A DNA stretch of 64,000 bases from a virus (taxonomy: Duplodnaviria; Caudoviricetes): IMG/VR virus record IMGVR_UViG_3300033075_001021. The stretch is one strand, 5' to 3'. This document shows, piece by piece, positions 17,496 to 63,601 of this stretch. Position 1 is the first letter of the stretch. Each line of letters opens with the position of its first letter. The notes under the pieces are model-generated. The model was not told the origin of the DNA, did not search any database, and saw only the letters and a list, made by a program, of their open reading frames with translations. The position numbers were made by a program, and so were the translations under genes.

Positions 17496-17533
17496 AGTTG
17501 CAAATATACGATTTTATTGTGAATAAATCAAGT

Positions 17534-21920: not shown

Positions 21921-21965
21921 AATATATTTTTACAAATATACCACATAAATTTTAAATCTCCAAAT

Positions 21966-22895: not shown

Positions 22896-22936
22896 CTGGC
22901 AAATATACGAAGATTAATTGAAACCACCAAATCTTT

Positions 22937-24955: not shown

Positions 24956-24985
24956 TGGTAGTCCCAGAAGGATTCGAACCCTCTA
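24956..24985 (-). pseudogene. 3' half (T arm, acceptor, CCA) of a split tRNA-Arg(ACG)
   Basis: TGGGACT pairs with GGTCTCA of the 5' half at 25523-25566. Confidence 0.8.
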
Positions 24986-27157: not shown

Positions 27158-27245
27158 TGGAGGATTGGGTGGGATTCGAACCCACGATGGTCTTGCGACA
27201 CTGGGTTAACAGCCCAGACTTTTCGGCCTCTAAAGCAACCAATCC
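27158..27245 (-). tRNA. tRNA-Asn(GTT), long variable arm
   Basis: CTGGG-CTGTTAA-CCCAG, variable hairpin GTC-GCAA-GAC, CCA. Confidence 0.85.
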
Positions 27246-27804: not shown

Positions 27805-27806
27805 TG

Positions 27807-27889
27807 TTGTGCCCGTGGGAGTCGAACCCACCTTGTTCCGAAGAACCCACCGTATCAGGATGGTGCCTAAACCGCTCGACCAGAGCACA
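27807..27889 (-). tRNA. tRNA-Ile(GAT), long variable arm
   Basis: CCATC-CTGATAC-GGTGG, variable hairpin GTTC-TTCG-GAAC. Confidence 0.85.
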
Positions 27890-27968: not shown

Positions 27969-28042
27969 ATTTTGCAGTTTTTAAGTCATATCAAGGGACG
28001 GAGGTGCAAGCTCCAAAACTTGGGGAGGGGTTTAACCCTAAG

Positions 28043-28133
28043 GGCGCATGATGGGATTCGAACCCACGGTGTTTGATATAATCTCATTCTGGTTCACAGC
28101 CAGATTCCATCGACCACTAGGACAACACACGCC
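28043..28133 (-). tRNA. tRNA-His(GTG), long variable region
   Basis: G-1/C73, TCTGG-CTGTGAA-CCAGA. Confidence 0.82.
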
Positions 28134-28581: not shown

Positions 28582-28672
28582 CGGAAGCGGACGGATTCGA
28601 ACCCTCAGACGATATTGCTACCGCCCCACTGTTTTCAAGACAGGGCCCCGCACCAATGGGGTCAGCGCTTCC
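28582..28672 (-). tRNA. tRNA-Ser(TGA)
   Basis: loop CTTGAAA, G73. Confidence 0.88.
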
Positions 28673-30006: not shown

Positions 30007-30366
30007 TTAGTATTCATCGATATCATCCCATTCTTCTTCATCACTTTCTTCATCTAACTCAGCTTCGCCATCCAATATTGATTGAAGATATTCTTCCCCA
30101 ATAAAGGTACCGAATTCACCCCCAAATATTTTATTAAATGTATCGTATTCATCTTTGGTGATTTCTTTAAATTCTATTCTTGATAATAGGTCTTCGCCGT
30201 TTGAATAATATAAACATTCAGAATTAGCATAATACTCAAAACTCCATGTGATGCTGGTTGCAATATCTTCAAAATCATTAACTTCTTTCTCAGTCATTAT
30301 TTTAAATCCATGCACATCAAACTCTTCACCATGGTTATCTATAAAAATTGCTAAATACCTTGCCAT
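30007..30366 (-). CDS. acidic hypothetical protein
   Basis: ORF track. Confidence 0.65.
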   Translation of the reverse strand: MARYLAIFIDNHGEEFDVHGFKIMTEKEVNDFEDIATSITWSFEYYANSECLYYSNGEDLLSRIEFKEITKDEYDTFNKIFGGEFGTFIGEEYLQSILDGEAELDEESDEEEWDDIDEY

Positions 30367-32355: not shown

Positions 32356-33366
32356 TTAATATAAATATCCCAATTTGTCGACTTCTTTTACGGCTTGTAT
32401 AAACCTTTCTTGGTAGTCCCCCCCTATTACAACATATTGAATTTTCTTTGCGTCTAACTCAGATTTAATTTTGTTAAAATGTTCTTTTCTCCTTTCTGGG
32501 AAATCACGGGTTCCATCATCAACCCAAGGTATATCGATATCCAACAATATATAAAGGTCAAAATATTGTTTAAAAATAACTTCACCTATTACAGTCGAGT
32601 CAAATTGTTCACCAAGATACATTTTTCCAAACACCTTAGTCGTTATTGCTTCAGTATCAACAAAAAGAACCTTGTTACCCCTTTTTAGTTTCTCACTAAT
32701 AAGTTTTTGATGACCAATTGCAATATTTTCAAAATCTAACGGTGTTAGATTTTCCGTGCCGCTAATCTCTGTATATGTTCTACCATACTCTTCAACATAA
32801 TCAGTACCATAATGGGTTGCTAACTTCTTAACTAGCGTTGATTTACCTGTTGATTCTGGACCAATGATAACAACACGCTTTGTGAAGTATGGTTTTACCA
32901 CATCAGGAATAAACTTCCAATTTGCATATGGATTTTCTCTAACTGCTGTTCCAGAAACAGCATAGTGACTTCTTGGTTGGTCAACCAACACGTGTTTAAT
33001 CCCCAAATATTCGGCAAACTCATCACCGTATTCTTCAGATGTAAAAACAGCATCCAACTTTTTTATGCGATTATAGACACTGGGGACCCAATATTTCTTA
33101 TAAAAAACATCAACCGATTCACACTCATGTGGATATTGTGGATTTGGGTCAGTACACCATATAATACGAATGTTAGGTTTATCTTTATAGATTTCCTTCA
33201 GCCAACCATACCTTAACCAGCCATCGATTGGTTGTGTTCCGTCAGAGCAAATCATAACGTGGGTTGTTTTACATTGCTCAGCTGCTGTATCAATTAAATA
33301 CAGATGCCCACGTTGCGGTGGCATGAATTTACCCAATACTAAACCGTTGTCATATTTTTTACCCAT
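32356..33366 (-). CDS. nadR: NadR-type NMN adenylyltransferase / ribosylnicotinamide kinase
   Basis: GKFMPPQRGH; GPESTGKST, EEYGR, WVDDGTR. Confidence 0.92.
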   Translation of the reverse strand: MGKKYDNGLVLGKFMPPQRGHLYLIDTAAEQCKTTHVMICSDGTQPIDGWLRYGWLKEIYKDKPNIRIIWCTDPNPQYPHECESVDVFYKKYWVPSVYNRIKKLDAVFTSEEYGDEFAEYLGIKHVLVDQPRSHYAVSGTAVRENPYANWKFIPDVVKPYFTKRVVIIGPESTGKSTLVKKLATHYGTDYVEEYGRTYTEISGTENLTPLDFENIAIGHQKLISEKLKRGNKVLFVDTEAITTKVFGKMYLGEQFDSTVIGEVIFKQYFDLYILLDIDIPWVDDGTRDFPERRKEHFNKIKSELDAKKIQYVVIGGDYQERFIQAVKEVDKLGYLY

Positions 33367-33878
33367 TTTGTTGCTCCTTTAATTGAAAAACCGATTAAAA
33401 TAAAAAACAATATCGCTGACCAGTACATTCCTTGATTTAAAAACATTATTATAAAAAGTACATCAGCAATAATCCATGTAAAAAAACCATGAATATACTT
33501 TTTTGCCAAATACCAATTCCCTAACATACTTAGAAGAGTTGTCAAAACATCTAATTCTGCTTGTGGGTTATCAGTATATCTTTTTAACAAAGGTACCGTA
33601 ATAAATCCAATTAAACAAACAATTAATAGGTCTCTGACCCAAATATTGTGGTTTAATAATATGCAAGATTCATCTTGTGTCGCTTTCCAATAATACCAAC
33701 CATATATGCATTGTCCTAATATGATGGTATCGGCTATAACTTGACCATATAGATGCTCATTAAAGACTAGATAAATGTAAATCAACGTTGCAAGAATCGC
33801 TGAGGGCCAACAAAGCACGTTTACCTTTACAGTGTAATATGCTGAAATAAGTGTTAATATTACCGCTATTATTTCCAT
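33339..33878 (-). CDS. pnuC: PnuC-family nicotinamide riboside transporter
   Basis: multi-TM, YGWYYW, W..W...D pattern; overlaps nadR. Confidence 0.85.
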   Translation of the reverse strand: MEIIAVILTLISAYYTVKVNVLCWPSAILATLIYIYLVFNEHLYGQVIADTIILGQCIYGWYYWKATQDESCILLNHNIWVRDLLIVCLIGFITVPLLKRYTDNPQAELDVLTTLLSMLGNWYLAKKYIHGFFTWIIADVLFIIMFLNQGMYWSAILFFILIGFSIKGATKWVKNMTTV

Positions 33879-34051
33879 TACTCATCGAATAATTTTCTTT
33901 CCTTTAAGGAATTAAATAATTTATCCGCTCTTTCTTTTGCTTCACGAATAAACTTTATATGTTTGGCCCTTCGTATAATCTTACGAATACCACCAATTGT
34001 TTTTACTTTCTTACCCCTTTTGTTGCCCCAGTAAAGATATTGTCCTTTCAT
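33878..34051 (-). CDS. small basic protein (57 aa)
   Basis: MKGQYLYWGNKRG...; overlaps both neighbours' start/stop. Confidence 0.55.
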   Translation of the reverse strand: MKGQYLYWGNKRGKKVKTIGGIRKIIRRAKHIKFIREAKERADKLFNSLKERKLFDE

Positions 34052-36015
34052 ATTTTAATTCTTAAGGTTACAAAATAATTTGCCAATGCCGTTGGGAATA
34101 AAAATCGCTTATTGTTCATCGCATAGCCATTAAAATAGAACTTGTTATTTGTGATGTTATTACCTTGAAGTGACAACACAAGATTCTTATATGAATATGA
34201 TGCATTAAACCCAATGGTTGTACATGCTGGTACGCTAAACTGATTTTCAATGTCAATATAAGCCTTAGAATAAATTGACTGATTTACATTCATTGAAAAT
34301 GCCTTGTTTGTATAGGTCAATGATTGATTGAACATTCGATTAGGACTGAATAATTGTTGTTTATTATCAACACTAAAACGACTGTTTGAAATGCTGCCAT
34401 TCACGCTATACTGAAAGGATTTGTTAATTGTATAATCAATGTCAAATTCAATTCCCTTCCTAAAACTCTTGTCAACATTAATCATCATCGGTAAGCTATT
34501 TGCCCCCATCGGGCCAGCTGGAATGATTTCATTTTGAAATGACATGTAATACAAGTTTGCTTGTAATGTCAATTTATCACCTTTATGGTTTACCCCAAGT
34601 TCAAGGTCAACTACTTCCTCTGGTTTAACGTTGTTTAAATCAGTTAAGTAAAGACCACCATTAAATAAAATATTCCTTGTTGGTTCCCTATGCGACATAC
34701 CAATTGAATAGTAAACATCAGTGTTTTTATCCAAAAAATATTTAAAACCAACCTTTGGATTTGTAAATAACCAAGTGTATTTACCTAATGCTTTATCCCC
34801 AACATATTTAAAATCAACATACCTTGCTTGCAAATCAAAATACATCTTGAGTTCCTCAGGCCCAAAGATTAATTTAACAAAGCTACTGGCTTCATTTTTA
34901 TTTCCATAATTTTGGTAGTTGCTCTTCAATACACTACTGTCAACCATTACGAATTCAGTACCAAAGTGATTTCGCCTATATGTATTCAACGATAAACCAA
35001 CAGATAGCTTTATGTTATCATTTTTGTAATCATATTGTGTTATATAACCAGCCCAATTTGAATATTGATTCTCTTGTGCATAATAACCAAGTGTTGGTAA
35101 AGACTCTTTATTAAAGACATCGTAATTACCTTCCAAGTGATTAACAAATAAGATACTTGTTAGTTTACTTTGTTTATTAAAGATGTTGGTGTTATGTATT
35201 TGGATATGGGTTTGATTGAAAAAGTCTTTCCTGTCATTACCCCTAGGATTATCACGATAATTAACCTTCAGCACATCTTCATCAGATGCCTCCCACGCCA
35301 TTTGGTTTCGGCTAAATCCGCTAAACACAACAAATTTAGTAATGCGTTTTTCACCATAATACCCACGGGTATAAAATATACTACCACCGTGGCTTCCAGA
35401 ATTCCGCCTAAACCCATCAGTTGTCATCATACCAACATTTAAAAAGCTTGCGTGTTTATTTTTCAATCCGCTTGAATACGCAGCATTCAATCTGAAAGTA
35501 TTAAATGAACCACCACCAATTTGAACCTCAGAACCACGGTTTAAACCTGTCTTGCTTTGGAAATTAATAGACCCAATAAAGGCAGCGCTACCATTCGTTG
35601 ATGAACCAACCCCTCGTTGAATCTGAATTGATTGAATAGCGTTGATAAAGCTTGGGAAGTTTGATGTATACACACCATGGTCTTCAGGCTCATTTAATGG
35701 GACACTATTTAATGTCATATTAATGCGGTTCTGACTGGCACCTCGCATACTAACGTATGTATAGCCTTGTGAGTGACCACCATCTGTATTTGAATACATT
35801 GACGGATATGACCCTAATAAAATTGGTACCTCTTGACCTTGATAACTAGACTGAATGGCTGTATCCCCGATTGTTTTCTGGGTTATAGGGGTGAACTTAT
35901 CAGCCCTAACCGCAGTAACTAAAACAGGTGACATTTCGGTAATCTTTACTGAATCCTGTGCAAATGATTGATAACCAATTAGTGATACTAATGCAAATAC
36001 AAATAATTTTTTCAT
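34048..36015 (-). CDS. TonB-dependent outer-membrane receptor
   Basis: signal peptide, plug (SMRG...N.VPLN...IQIQRG...GSIN), beta-barrel, NNITN..Y. Confidence 0.9.
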   Translation of the reverse strand: MKKLFVFALVSLIGYQSFAQDSVKITEMSPVLVTAVRADKFTPITQKTIGDTAIQSSYQGQEVPILLGSYPSMYSNTDGGHSQGYTYVSMRGASQNRINMTLNSVPLNEPEDHGVYTSNFPSFINAIQSIQIQRGVGSSTNGSAAFIGSINFQSKTGLNRGSEVQIGGGSFNTFRLNAAYSSGLKNKHASFLNVGMMTTDGFRRNSGSHGGSIFYTRGYYGEKRITKFVVFSGFSRNQMAWEASDEDVLKVNYRDNPRGNDRKDFFNQTHIQIHNTNIFNKQSKLTSILFVNHLEGNYDVFNKESLPTLGYYAQENQYSNWAGYITQYDYKNDNIKLSVGLSLNTYRRNHFGTEFVMVDSSVLKSNYQNYGNKNEASSFVKLIFGPEELKMYFDLQARYVDFKYVGDKALGKYTWLFTNPKVGFKYFLDKNTDVYYSIGMSHREPTRNILFNGGLYLTDLNNVKPEEVVDLELGVNHKGDKLTLQANLYYMSFQNEIIPAGPMGANSLPMMINVDKSFRKGIEFDIDYTINKSFQYSVNGSISNSRFSVDNKQQLFSPNRMFNQSLTYTNKAFSMNVNQSIYSKAYIDIENQFSVPACTTIGFNASYSYKNLVLSLQGNNITNNKFYFNGYAMNNKRFLFPTALANYFVTLRIKI

Positions 36016-36106
36016 TTTTTGTGTTAATTTTTTTGTTCAGATGCAAATATAGGGGGAATTTTTGACATAACCAAAAAATAAATGGGGAAAATATTTTCCC
36101 CATTTA

Positions 36107-36442
36107 TTATGCCACTGGATTTGATTTTAAGTAGTCCTCTTTTGAGGTCTTCTTTTTTGGTTTCCAACCACGAGCAATACGAGCTTTATGAACATTTTTC
36201 TTATGTTTTTTCTTATTCCTGTAATTACCAATTAGGGTTGTTGTCTCTTCATAACTCTTAATTATTTGGTCTAAAAGATTGAGCTTTTCTTTATCTGTCA
36301 TACTTGAAGTCTTATATGTTCGGTTCCAATATTTCATATAAGGTGTTAATTTTTTCTCATCTTCAGTCAACATTGAATTTAAGATATCGTGTATCTCATT
36401 TGAAAATTTGCATTTAATCATTGCGATAGGACTTTGTTTCAT
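36107..36442 (-). CDS. basic hypothetical protein downstream of amber minigene
   Basis: ORF track. Confidence 0.65.
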   Translation of the reverse strand: MKQSPIAMIKCKFSNEIHDILNSMLTEDEKKLTPYMKYWNRTYKTSSMTDKEKLNLLDQIIKSYEETTTLIGNYRNKKKHKKNVHKARIARGWKPKKKTSKEDYLKSNPVA

Positions 36443-36506
36443 ATTTTTGTTTTTTTTTATTTGTTAATTTTTATTTATGTGTTAAATTGTTGTTTTAAAA
36501 TATGAA

Positions 36507-36539
36507 TTATCCTGTTGGTCCTCTAATTGTCTATTTCAT
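36507..36539 (-). other. amber-interrupted minigene MK*TIRGPTG
   Basis: ATG AAA TAG ACA ATT AGA GGA CCA ACA GGA TAA, 11 nt after the PTH2 stop. Confidence 0.6.
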
Positions 36540-36550
36540 AATTATAAATT

Positions 36551-36919
36551 TTAGTTATTGTTATTGGTTGTAATTAACTCTTTACCATATAGCGGTAAGT
36601 TACTGCATAGCTTTCTTGCATCAGTAGACGCCTCAAAAGCAACGGCTGTAATTTGATTGTTAATATCTGGTTCTCTGAAGATGGTATATTTGATACCACG
36701 AAGACTGGCTTTGACAATAAGGTCTATCAAAGACTGTTCATCTTTTGTTGTGAGAATTGCTAAATGATTGGATTGTTTATGCCATTCTGTTGATACCTGA
36801 GGGTATTCGTGTTGAAAATCAATGGCAGCATGTGCGGCTTGGACGCATTGTTGTGGAAGGGATAAATCACGTCTTGTGATTACTCTAAGTTTTTCTGTGT
36901 TAGAAATCTAGTGTGTCAT
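36551..36919 (-). CDS. PTH2-family peptidyl-tRNA hydrolase with in-frame TAG at codon 4 (missed by ORF track)
   Basis: MTH*ISNTEKLRVITRRDLSLPQQCVQAAHAA...FREPDINNQITAVA; no other ATG in frame. Confidence 0.85.
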
Positions 36920-36967
36920 AACTGTTTGTTTTTTAATAAATATACTGTTTTTGTTAAAAATATCAAG

Positions 36968-37039
36968 TGACCCAGAGGGGATTCGAACCCCTACCCACAA
37001 TTTTAGAGATTGGTGTGCTGCCATTACAACCACAGGGCC
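36968..37039 (-). tRNA. amber suppressor tRNA (anticodon CTA)
   Basis: CAAT-CTCTAAA-ATTG, T arm AGGGG-TTCGAAT-CCCCT; TATCTTTG promoter at ~37050-37057. Confidence 0.85.
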
Positions 37040-37082
37040 AATTATACCACAAAGATAAGTGGTATTTTTGAAATTACCAAAT

Positions 37083-37907: not shown

Positions 37908-38588
37908 TTAGACAAGTAAATTTACACGACCTTTATAGATATCTTTTATACTAGCTGTTTTATTGGTAATATGGTCAATGACAATCCCATCTTTAACACG
38001 ATATGTCCTACGTTTATCACTTCGCTCACCAGTACCAATCTGTTCCCTTCTTGTCTCAGATTCTTCTTCCATAAAACCAGTTAAATAATAGTGATTAACT
38101 CTTCGTTTAATTTCTTTATAGGCATCTTCACGATTACTTAATTGGCTTCTACCATCACGTACAACCTTTATACCAGTTGGGATATGTGTCATAATGACAC
38201 AAGAGTCCGTGGTGTTTTTATGTTGACCACCTTTGCCAGTTCCTCTGGTTGTTTCAATCTTTAGTTCATGTTGGGGAATTTCAATCTCTTTAAATGATTG
38301 ATTTTCAAGTACGGCAATGGTTATGGTACTGGTATGCACCCTACCACGATTTTCTGTCGGTGGTACACGTTGCCATCTGTGTGAACCTATTTCGTTTTGG
38401 AAAAAATCTTTGACATTTTGGCCGCTTAGTCAGATTGAAGCAAAGCCATCCCGTTCTTCGAGAACTCTTCAGTTGAAGTTATTGTTTTTGGCCGCTTTGA
38501 TATAGATGTCTTTCATATCATGAACTAGCAATTTGGAATCTTGTCCACCTTCGCTAGCCCTAATCTCTAGTGTAATTTCGTTTTTCAT
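37908..38588 (-). CDS. class I release factor (RF1-like, lacking domain 1) with two in-frame TGA codons
   Basis: LEIRASEGG...HRWQRVPPTE.RGRVHTST...GGQH.NTTDS...RS.K.RTY; TGA at 38469-38471 and 38430-38432. Confidence 0.88.
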
Positions 38589-38977: not shown

Positions 38978-38981
38978 TTTG

Positions 38982-39066
38982 TTGCGGGAGTAGGATTCGA
39001 ACCTACACTTGCATTTGATGTCTCTAGGTTATGAGCCTAGCATGTTGCCAATTACACTATCCCGCT
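38982..39066 (-). tRNA. tRNA-Met(CAT), long variable region
   Basis: CTAGG-CTCATAA-CCTAG; 1:72 mismatch. Confidence 0.8.
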
Positions 39067-40062: not shown

Positions 40063-40854
40063 TTATTTGACTGATTTCCAAATCAGTCCACGATTTATTT
40101 TACTAATTGTTTCTTGTGCGACCATAAATTTATTAGCAATGGTTTTTTGTTTAACACCTTCAGCAAGCATTCTCTTTATATCTAAAACATCTTCTTTTGA
40201 TAATTTAGTATTATTTATATTTTCACCACATATTTGAGAATTTCTGCCTTTATTCCATCCAACTAATAAATAGTTCTTTAAATCTTCTCGCCGTATTTTC
40301 TTGTTTTCACCATCTTTAGTTATCCAACAAGTACCATATTGAGAATTTTGTTTACCTAAACCAGAATCTTTGCTCGATTCACTCATTTTTTGTTTTGAGG
40401 CCTCCGAATGTTTCTTACCCAACCAGTTTAATTGCCAATCATTTTTACGTTCACCATTTTGGTACTCTTTTTTTCTAGCAGAAGAAATTTTTTGTGAAAA
40501 TTCTAATCTAAAATTTTTATCTGATTGTAATTTTTCTCTAAATGCCTGATTATGTTTTAAATTCCATCCGACACCACCATCAACTATATTCATACACATC
40601 TTATCAATCAACATATCTGATGTTATAACTTCCTTCTCGGCCTCAACCAATAATTCTCTCGAATCAAAGAACTCTAATATCTCTTTTAGATGATTTTCTA
40701 CACCATATTTTCTTATCGAACGTCTTAATACTTTACCAGACCCCATATAACCGTCTTCAAGGTTACTAGTACTGTGCATTCCGATATAATATCTACCTGT
40801 TATAACACATGTTGTTTTATACAGGTAGTGAATGTTTGCTTTTTTTCTAGGCAT
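40063..40854 (-). CDS. GIY-YIG homing endonuclease (Seg-like) with C-terminal HTH
   Basis: YLYKTTCVITGRYYIGMHST; abuts tmRNA 3' end. Confidence 0.9.
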   Translation of the reverse strand: MPRKKANIHYLYKTTCVITGRYYIGMHSTSNLEDGYMGSGKVLRRSIRKYGVENHLKEILEFFDSRELLVEAEKEVITSDMLIDKMCMNIVDGGVGWNLKHNQAFREKLQSDKNFRLEFSQKISSARKKEYQNGERKNDWQLNWLGKKHSEASKQKMSESSKDSGLGKQNSQYGTCWITKDGENKKIRREDLKNYLLVGWNKGRNSQICGENINNTKLSKEDVLDIKRMLAEGVKQKTIANKFMVAQETISKINRGLIWKSVK

Positions 40855-40902
40855 ATCTATATATTTCTATATAAATATGCGCTAGGTACAAAAAAGTCAT
40901 CG

Positions 40903-41256
40903 TGGAGAATATCGGAATCGAACCGATGTCTTGTGCATTCTTCAAAAGCTTTCTACATGTTTAGAACAGAACTTTCTAGTTCTTCGCAATATCTTGCTGT
41001 TATGGTTAACAAGAAAACCACGGAGTTATTTAGCGTCTAACTCAGAACTGACGGTTTTTGGTGGTCTACCACCATCGCAGGATTAGGCTACTGCAAGCTC
41101 TCCTGAACCCACAGTTAGGACTGCTTCGTCAAGGAAATTTTCTGATACGATAAAATCGTTGTCGTTTGTTTTTTGATAGACATTTTAAAGTGCATTCCAA
41201 TCTAGCACTACATGCTTACTAATTACGACTATACGCAATCAATACCTGTATTCCCC
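40903..41256 (-). ncRNA. ssrA: tmRNA
   Basis: GGGGAAT/ATTCTCC-A with G3:U70, T arm, internal tag frame ending GELAVA*. Confidence 0.92.
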
Positions 41257-44090: not shown

Positions 44091-44141
44091 CTATTTATTT
44101 TTATGCAAATATACGCTATTTTTCATTAAAAAACAAATTCA

Positions 44142-47077: not shown

Positions 47078-47139
47078 AAAAAATTTTTTTTCAATAAATT
47101 GTTTTGGATTATTATAGAGTTACAAATATACGAAGAAAA

Positions 47140-59036: not shown

Positions 59037-59074
59037 GTTTTATCTTTTTTTTTTACAAATATACTTAACGTATT

Positions 59075-63562: not shown

Positions 63563-63601
63563 AGAACAAATATACTAAATTATTCGCTGAAATGCAATAT
63601 A

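Follow-up and report, generated by a model that had tools for sequence, protein, structure and literature searches.

In a 64,000-nucleotide (nt) stretch of viral DNA (IMG/VR record IMGVR_UViG_3300033075_001021; Duplodnaviria, Caudoviricetes; the whole stretch is hereafter called the window), an amber suppressor transfer RNA (tRNA) lies directly upstream of a PTH2-fold gene with TAG at codon 4, which is followed by a ten-codon open reading frame (ORF) with TAG at codon 3. It is rather likely that this phage tRNA gates two outputs, namely the PTH2-like protein by direct read-through and a 111-amino-acid (aa) ORF by read-through-dependent stalling of the ribosome on the ten-codon leader. An earlier interpretation made from the letters alone (the sequence-only reading) had proposed that hydrolase output is gated by competition between the suppressor tRNA and RF1 at UAG and thereby senses termination capacity. 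Its first part, the dependence of hydrolase synthesis on UAG read-through, very probably holds in view of the conserved TAG and the suppressor tRNA. Sensing of the RF1 level, rather than of the state of the suppressor tRNA, is not supported as written.

Proposed Mechanism and Organization of the Locus

In the mechanism proposed here, the phage tRNA would compete with RF1 at two early UAG codons. If RF1 wins, both frames would stop after two or three residues and nothing useful would be made; with the stop within the first few codons, almost nothing would be wasted when termination prevails. If the tRNA wins at the UAG of the PTH2 gene, the hydrolase-like protein would be made directly. If it wins at the UAG of the leader, the ribosome would reach a RAPP-like stalling motif at the end of that ORF. 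The stalled ribosome would cover the 10-nt 5' arm of a stem, and the start of the 111-aa ORF would be freed for translation. The logic of such a stalling switch would be that of secM-secA, ermCL-ermC, and the RAPP leaders. Given that dozens of phages conserve this layout, the PTH2 gene and the leader are probably both read to their ends only when the tRNA overrides the stop. Our best guess is that the outputs serve either to cope with what follows from UAG read-through or to signal that the phage tRNAs work.

On the minus strand, the order of elements is tRNA(CUA), PTH2-fold gene, ten-codon ORF, 111-aa ORF, and a terminator-like hairpin. The tRNA and the PTH2 ORF are separated by 47 nt, and the PTH2 stop and the ten-codon ORF by 11 nt. 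A second terminator-like site was not found on the minus strand between 37039 and 36108, and we propose that the tRNA, the PTH2 gene, the leader, and the 111-aa ORF form a single transcription unit. The elements are as follows.

36967-37039, minus strand: amber suppressor tRNA, anticodon CUA, loop CU-CUA-AA (ARAGORN; 36968-37039 according to Rfam)
36551-36919, minus strand: PTH2-fold gene, 122 codons, TAG as codon 4 (Pfam PF01981)
36908-36910, minus strand: the TAG at codon 4, in frame, with ATT as the next codon; its position falls in the N-terminal tail that precedes the first strand of the protein and is modelled with low confidence
36507-36539, minus strand: leader ORF, M K TAG T I R G P T G TAA, with the TAG at 36531-36533
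36497-36506, minus strand: TTCATATTTT, 5' arm of the putative anti-start stem, beginning directly after the leader stop codon
36438-36447, minus strand: AAAATATGAA, 3' arm of the same stem, including the ATG (36440-36442) of the 111-aa ORF
36107-36442, minus strand: 111-aa ORF, small, with a basic C-terminus, proposed to be leader-controlled
36077-36108, minus strand: terminator-like hairpin, 14 pairs followed by a T run, closing the unit of tRNA, PTH2 gene, leader, and 111-aa ORF

Conservation of the Early TAG and Its Link to the tRNA

Relatives of the PTH2 gene were collected in two scans of IMG/VR. The first returned 10 loci with 44-74% identity. From the second, which was alignment-based, the best 80 of 115 relatives were retained, and these comprise 65 distinct N-termini with 39-74% identity. 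A stop is found 2-4 codons past the ATG in 10/10 loci of the first scan. Among the distinct N-termini, the stop at the early position is TAG in 64/65, a conservation that the sequence-only reading had proposed to look for in homologs, and TAA in 1/65. An ATG is located 1-7 codons 5' of the stop in 64/65. The peptides that precede the stop vary (MT, MK, MTH, MSL, and others). The next base is a purine in every sequence, A in 49/65 and G in 16/65, and never C or T.

A tRNA(CUA) is encoded on the same strand within 4 kilobases (kb) in 67/80 related loci, frequently 60-140 nt upstream as in the window. In one locus (L010), the PTH2 gene carries TAA, the leader likewise contains TAA and is terminated by TAG, and the tRNA has the anticodon UUA. 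The stop in both gated ORFs hence matches the anticodon, which gives only indirect support to decoding of the stop by the tRNA. Two other loci (L093 and L094) have a plain ATG start; the 20 codons 5' of their conserved N-terminal Lys-Leu contain no in-frame stop, and not one tRNA gene is found on the 160-kb contig to which they belong. In a complete 169-kb genome (L063), the PTH2 gene has TAG and the sole tRNA of the suppressor type is a tRNA(UUA) 1.4 kb away. Such ochre suppressors read UAG as well as UAA by wobble.

The arrangement also occurs in cultured phages. In Tenacibaculum phage pT24, the gene opens with MK-TAG-I and the annotation places a "tRNA-Sup" 2.5 kb upstream; the deposited coding sequence (CDS) begins at a later codon and leaves out the N-terminus of the PTH2 domain. 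Gp84 of mycobacteriophage Myrna opens with GTG TAG GTG, and a tRNA(CUA) lies just downstream. Further PTH2 homologues are present in XacN1, where the protein is annotated as hypothetical, in Xoo-sp13, and in Stenotrophomonas phages. According to these comparisons, the TAG at codon 4 is a conserved and selected feature tied to a phage suppressor tRNA, and synthesis of the hydrolase therefore very probably depends on UAG read-through.

The Suppressor tRNA and the PTH2-Fold Protein

The tRNA with a CTA anticodon that the sequence-only reading had placed at 36968-37039 is confirmed by Rfam (47.1 bits against a cut-off of 29) and by ARAGORN, whose cloverleaf presents CUA within a 7-nt anticodon loop. 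The acceptor stem contains a U-U mismatch and a G-U pair, the discriminator base is A, and CCA is not encoded. In the proposed mechanism, this tRNA would be charged and would decode UAG.

The PTH2 ORF opens with ATG ACA CAC TAG and continues with 118 sense codons and TAA. The first canonical start past the TAG is located 60 codons in and its use would remove half of the domain. As had been claimed from the letters, the domain behind the TAG is intact and in frame (PF01981, 32.9 bits against a gathering score of 23). A profile of 62 relatives finds solved Pth2 chains in the PDB at E values from 3e-10 to 3e-3, the best being Pth2 of M. jannaschii (3e-10). The AlphaFold (AF2) model has a predicted local distance difference test (pLDDT) score of 90.5, with low confidence only in approximately the first nine residues, the UAG position included. 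The top 13 Foldseek matches in the PDB are all Pth2 or Pth2-like, with template modelling (TM) scores of 0.69-0.77. By sequence and predicted structure, the protein is a member of the Pth2 superfamily in a phage-specific subfamily (phrog_1866, without assigned function), and it might hydrolyse peptidyl-tRNA. It has its fold in common with archaeal and eukaryotic Pth2 (PF01981; MJ0051, 2zv3; Bit1, 1q7s; SsPth2, 1xty) at TM scores of 0.7-0.77. Unlike these, some phage members are fused to a longer C-terminal domain. An amber-gated PTH2 domain is joined to approximately 190 aa in pT24 (L101, LC168164.1; 2960-3924) and in L005 (5974-6912).

The Leader and the Downstream Reading Frame

The leader reads ATG AAA TAG ACA ATT AGA GGA CCA ACA GGA TAA, and the minigene described by the sequence-only reading is present at 36539-36507. 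A search of the related loci for M and 0-6 residues before TAG, with R[AG]P and a stop behind it, gave repeated matches. A tight pattern occurs in 20/69 dereplicated loci on the gene strand and in none on the opposite strand; with TAA or TGA in place of TAG, there is no match, and permuted motifs give at most one. Leaders with R[AG]P in relatives include MT#VIRGPT, MM#IIRGPT, MR#IARAPT, MM#IYRAPP, and MK#IIRAPP (# being the TAG). In loci without R[AG]P, the leader ends in [KR]xPP or KPP, for example MS#IKPP, MN#IKAPP, or MK#IRKKPP. With a broader pattern, a leader is present in 43/69 loci when the gene strand is read and in 0/69 when the opposite strand is; the TGA version of the pattern gives no match and the TAA version two. 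The motifs form a series across relatives (RGPT, RAPT, RAPP, RGPP, [KR]xPP, and KPP), and the resemblance of RGP to RAGP/RAPP-type arrest motifs, noted in the sequence-only reading, is strengthened by its place in this conserved RAPP-like series. The leaders are 6-13 codons long, with 4-7 residues before the motif and the motif 0-2 codons from the stop.

A co-directional ORF begins 26-144 nt past the leader in 43/43 loci and has 98-156 aa in all but three. The ORFs that follow belong to at least three families, which are mutually unrelated by hhalign. In four loci (L075, L079, L098, and L099), the leader is located 5' of the PTH2 gene instead. Homologues of the 111-aa ORF of the window occur at the same place in L021, L022, and L024, and a comparison with Pfam, PHROG, and Atlas gave no match to Pfam or PHROG and no useful one to Atlas.

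The flank of the leader can pair with the start of the next ORF. In the window, the stem is present in both the minimum free energy and the centroid fold. Its duplex has -8.3 kcal/mol and is modestly better than controls (empirical p 0.036), the arms being scored against 300 other sites within the same locus. The same test gives p <= 0.05 in 17/43 loci. In most loci, the 5' arm begins 0-7 nt after the first base of the leader stop and its partner lies at or just before the downstream start; the 3' arm spans the ATG in 20/43. The arm sequences change by clade and the complementarity stays. In the largest family, TAAGTTTATT pairs with AATAAACTTA, and in a family that uses Shine-Dalgarno sequences, AGTTTCCATAAT pairs with ATTATGGAAAC, the latter including the ATG. 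A stem at this position would limit initiation of the downstream ORF.

Small upstream ORFs (uORFs) with RAPP or RGPP near their C-terminus are documented arrest leaders, and RGPP is the strongest in the available text of these reports (PMC12992588, PMC10951233). The RAPP-like arrest peptides named in the accessible parts of the literature include ApdA and ApdP (RAPP), ApcA (RAPG), SecM (RAGP), CruR, and Streptomyces uORFs with RGPP or RAPP (PMC10951233, PMC12992588, PMC7897499). As far as those parts describe them, the phage leader has in common with them a small uORF, an Arg-small-Pro-x core just before the stop, a co-directional gene that follows, and a start region of that gene able to pair with the 3' flank of the leader. 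By analogy, the leader would stall the ribosome at RGPT. Unlike the leaders described there, the phage leader has 6-13 codons, no signal peptide, and an in-frame UAG before the motif; the stall would be reachable only via read-through, and the input would be a tRNA rather than secretion or a metal.

Between leader and downstream ORF, the words CTTGGACA and CATAGACA are repeated in L021, L025-L041, and others. They often form perfect hairpins (ACTTGGACA...TGTCCAAGT) that fill the loop of the anti-start stem, and they are absent from the window. The repeats may be a protein-binding or promoter element. In a separate relative (L001), a tRNA-like gene with an abnormal anticodon loop and a four-base "ggaa" anticodon is predicted by ARAGORN at 6690-6762, directly 5' of the amber leader of that locus.

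The Genetic Code of the Phage

Coding density in the window is 0.771 with code 11. It becomes 0.806 if TAG is counted as sense and 0.817 if TGA is, the latter serving as a control. In the closest large relative, a 160-kb contig, the values are 0.811, 0.824, and 0.824, respectively. TAG terminates 4/81 ORFs of the window, including pnuC, and 24/228 ORFs of this relative. The number of ORF pairs separated by a single TAG does not exceed the expectation from trinucleotide frequencies, and the terminase genes of two relatives contain no in-frame stop. In the window and the 160-kb relative alike, PTH2 is the only gene with a near-start TAG that lacks a nearby downstream start. The phage uses the standard code. 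The sequence-only reading had likewise excluded genome-wide recoding, and the density gain with TAG as sense, which does not exceed that of the TGA control, and the ORFs ended by TAG bear this out. Of the two terminators it had cited as TAG, the one at 24983 is TAG and the one at 30007 is TAA.

Weighing the Proposed Switch Against Other Explanations

Several points count against the proposed switch. Because the relatives share phylogeny, each locus cannot be counted as an event of its own. Following the assignment for SsPth2, catalysis in archaeal Pth2 involves the Lys of GKGK and the Asp of RDAG. In a hidden Markov model (HMM) alignment to 2zv3, this Lys aligns to Gln or Tyr in the phage family, so that classical hydrolase chemistry is not assured, and the Asp aligns to an invariant Glu83; His30 (in an AQxxHA stretch) and Thr91 (in the C-terminal strand) are also invariant in the phage family. 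A comparison of 64 distinct tRNAs(CUA) revealed no common acceptor identity or discriminator pattern, with G3:U70 in 1/64 and a variable nearest isoacceptor. The absence of common identity elements would fit an early stop at which the inserted residue is irrelevant, and its identity would be immaterial because the position lies in a disordered N-terminal tail. The stem of the window is weak and AU-rich, and the fold of its whole leader region is no better than that of shuffles (z -0.33 and -0.84). In the available text on published RAPP peptides, the motif alone is insufficient for arrest and an adjacent N-terminal region is needed, and the leader in the window has only ten codons. Its core, RGPT, is outside the variants tested in the accessible parts of that work (RAPP, RGPP, RAPG, and RAGP).

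The two short frames could instead act as bar-type minigenes that shed peptidyl-tRNA, which the PTH2 enzyme would clear; RF1 capacity rather than the suppressor tRNA would then be sensed. Short ORFs favour drop-off. Without suppression, both frames are minigenes of 2-3 codons, and even after read-through, the leader is still only 6-13 codons long with a Pro-rich, poorly terminating end. A PTH2-fold protein is encoded adjacent to it and an RF1-like gene 1 kb upstream. This explanation, to which we assign a small probability, leaves the pairing of the leader 3' flank with the next start in most loci and the constant presence of a co-directional ORF after the leader unexplained, and in the four loci named above, the leader precedes the PTH2 gene. 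The drop-off role that the sequence-only reading had given to the minigene, by reference to lambda bar and its relief by Pth, is not supported as written. The minigene fits a regulatory leader better because of its amber codon, its stalling motif, and the pairing of its 3' flank with the downstream start. Drop-off and leader function are not mutually exclusive. Alternatively, the TAG could be the stop of a three-codon uORF, with the PTH2 protein starting after it at AUU or GUG by termination-reinitiation and the tRNA being unrelated. The codon after TAG is ATT in 40/65 sequences, which a start at AUU would also fit, and ATG in one; the Myrna gene is annotated as starting at the GTG next to the TAG, and the Shine-Dalgarno sequence is better placed for this second GTG. 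These observations speak against the proposed gating and keep a start after the stop alive for some members. For the family as a whole, we find such reinitiation very unlikely. In approximately 20/65 sequences, the stop is followed by a codon that is no start (GTA, GTT, GGC, AGC, AAT, GCT, AAC, GGA, or AGA), and TAG is used in 64/65 although TAA ends approximately 75% of genes in these genomes. The stop type of L010 matches the anticodon in both ORFs, and a leader with a conserved C-terminal motif makes sense only when it is read through.

That the phage is recoded in the manner of code 15, with TAG as one of many sense codons in late genes outside the window, strikes us as highly improbable. 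There is ample documentation of recoded phages that carry suppressor tRNAs (bioRxiv 10.1101/2021.08.26.457843), and the view is limited to 64 kb of the genome. However, neither the window nor the 160-kb relative gains more density from TAG as sense than from the TGA control, TAG terminates real genes, the terminases of two relatives are uninterrupted, and a plain sense codon would not remain TAG in 64/65 while neighbouring codons vary. A pseudogene or assembly error, together with a minigene that arose by chance, could be considered since there is one in-frame stop and AT-rich intergenic DNA readily gives ATG-AAA-TAG; it is effectively refuted by the conservation in over 60 distinct sequences, by the purine that always follows the stop, by the restriction to one strand, and by the controls with altered motifs.

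Relation to Known Systems

In code-15 phages (TAG = Gln; crAss-like, Lak, and others), a phage tRNA(CUA) is likewise proposed to allow ORFs that the host would terminate, and in-frame stops are proposed as a timing device (bioRxiv 10.1101/2021.08.26.457843, PMC9523058). The phage discussed here differs in that the standard code is kept, TAG still terminates, and the stop is confined to the ORF pair near the tRNA and to their first few codons. A hydrolase is mentioned zero times in the recoding survey (bioRxiv 10.1101/2021.08.26.457843). The proposed switch also resembles prfB (RF2), in which an early in-frame stop, UGA, ties the yield of a translation factor to competition at this codon. Whereas prfB uses +1 frameshifting and senses its own product, the phage module would use in-frame decoding by a dedicated tRNA, and the gated protein is not a release factor. 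A prfB-type CUU-stop-C +1 site was not found in the PTH2 gene or the leader, and both stay in frame across the TAG. Lambda bar minigenes are toxic through sequestration of tRNA in Pth-deficient hosts and, to our knowledge, regulate nothing. They are likewise very short ORFs functionally linked to peptidyl-tRNA hydrolase; unlike them, the phage ORF is conserved and combines a stalling motif with a pairing partner further downstream.

Neither an amber-gated PTH2 gene nor an amber-gated arrest leader turned up in full-text literature searches. Many jumbo phages with the standard code encode suppressor tRNAs, whose targets have been an open question; according to the XacN1 paper, it was not possible to find targets for the two tRNA(CUA) genes of that phage. 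The module would supply such targets, namely two ORFs with tiny leaders, which annotation pipelines shorten or miss, as in the pT24 CDS. If the proposed mechanism is true, it represents a natural switch with a tRNA as the trans-acting input and a stop codon as the lock. Such a switch would couple read-through of a stop codon with arrest by a nascent peptide, provide a ready-made orthogonal part for synthetic biology, and show that termination in host translation is monitored or tuned by huge phages.

The Neighbouring RF1-Like Gene

The UAG reader and a recoded RF1-type factor are encoded within approximately 1.6 kb of each other.

37908-38588, minus strand: short RF1-type release-factor gene with PCRF and RF-1 domains and the motifs PPT and GGQ

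This gene contains two in-frame TGA codons (38471-38469 and 38432-38430). Both are kept in nine distinct RF1-like homologues, the second always as TGA CTA. In three other homologues, both sites are Cys codons, and a CTT TAG C at which the frame shifts by +1 comes after them (e.g., L004, 3502-3508). By its sequence, this CTT TAG C site is an amber mirror of the prfB site, and the frameshift form was found only in RF1-like genes of relatives. A tRNA that reads UGA was not seen in the window. An Rfam match to "tRNA-Sec" at 28583-28672 was considered and rejected as a UGA decoder for the RF1-like gene, as it is a tRNA-Ser whose anticodon, read from the sequence, is UGA.

One could extend the proposed switch to a phage-run control of UAG decoding, in which the tRNA would be the signal, the leader the sensor, the PTH2-like protein a feedback through hydrolysis of acylated or peptidyl forms of the suppressor tRNA or of the products that this tRNA causes, and the RF1-like factor, which would itself need UGA read-through, the opposing arm. 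Read-through at UAG stops of host and phage would then be held at a set level in the course of infection. We consider this extension unlikely, though with some chance of being right.

Window Context and Minor Observations

The window has 35% G+C, and the minus strand carries nearly all of its genes. ARAGORN and Rfam find 44 tRNA genes and a transfer-messenger RNA (tmRNA), and CCA-adding enzyme, two RNA ligases, DNA ligase, a Ro/TROVE-like protein, DnaJ, TonB-dependent receptor, PnuC, and a NadR-like protein are also encoded. The window is a tRNA and translation island of a huge phage, whose host probably belongs to the Bacteroidota. Comparison with cultured phages by blastn gave matches only to homing-endonuclease fragments.

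Two motif matches lie upstream of the suppressor tRNA.

37050-37057, minus strand: TATCTTTG, match to the Bacteroidota-type TAnnTTTG element, putative promoter, 10 nt upstream of the tRNA
37041-37046, minus strand: TATAAT, a sequence match

The motif match behind the promoter of the sequence-only reading exists. A promoter is not established by it, for TAnnTTTG is not enriched across the window (102 found against 96.5 expected) and a sigma-70 scan gave matches no more numerous than in shuffles. Separately, TATATTTG, which resembles a Bacteroidota-type -7 element, recurs from a few to approximately 45 nt 5' of gene starts on the minus strand. Its copies include the following.

17501-17508, minus strand: TATATTTG
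21933-21940, minus strand: TATATTTG
22900-22907, minus strand: TATATTTG
36044-36051, minus strand: TATATTTG
44106-44113, minus strand: TATATTTG
47123-47130, minus strand: TATATTTG
59056-59063, minus strand: TATATTTG
63567-63574, minus strand: TATATTTG

Directly 3' of the module, a NAD-salvage-like island extends over 32356-36015 on the minus strand.

34048-36015, minus strand: TonB-dependent receptor
33339-33878, minus strand: PnuC, terminated by TAG
32356-33366, minus strand: NadR-like protein

The available text of one report describes RAPP/RGPP uORFs 5' of bacterial TonB-dependent receptors (PMC12992588). In the window, the terminator-like hairpin stands between the leader unit and the TonB-dependent receptor gene.

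The phage tmRNA, whose tag ends in ELAVA, adjoins an ORF resembling GIY-YIG/NUMOD3-type homing endonucleases (40900-41256 and 40063-40854, minus strand). An abnormal anticodon loop with a two-base "ag" anticodon is predicted by ARAGORN in a tRNA-like gene at 6464-6551 (minus strand). A length of 84-91 nt was seen in several tRNAs whose types (Glu, Asp, Val, Cys, Asn, Ile, His, and Met) are normally short, and these occur beside isoacceptor copies of normal length.

1386-1473, minus strand: tRNA of 84-91 nt
2361-2448, minus strand: tRNA of 84-91 nt
7231-7316, minus strand: tRNA of 84-91 nt
7894-7981, minus strand: tRNA of 84-91 nt
27158-27245, minus strand: tRNA of 84-91 nt
27806-27889, minus strand: tRNA of 84-91 nt
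28042-28132, minus strand: tRNA of 84-91 nt
38981-39066, minus strand: tRNA of 84-91 nt

The additional length may reflect introns, insertions, or degenerate duplicates.

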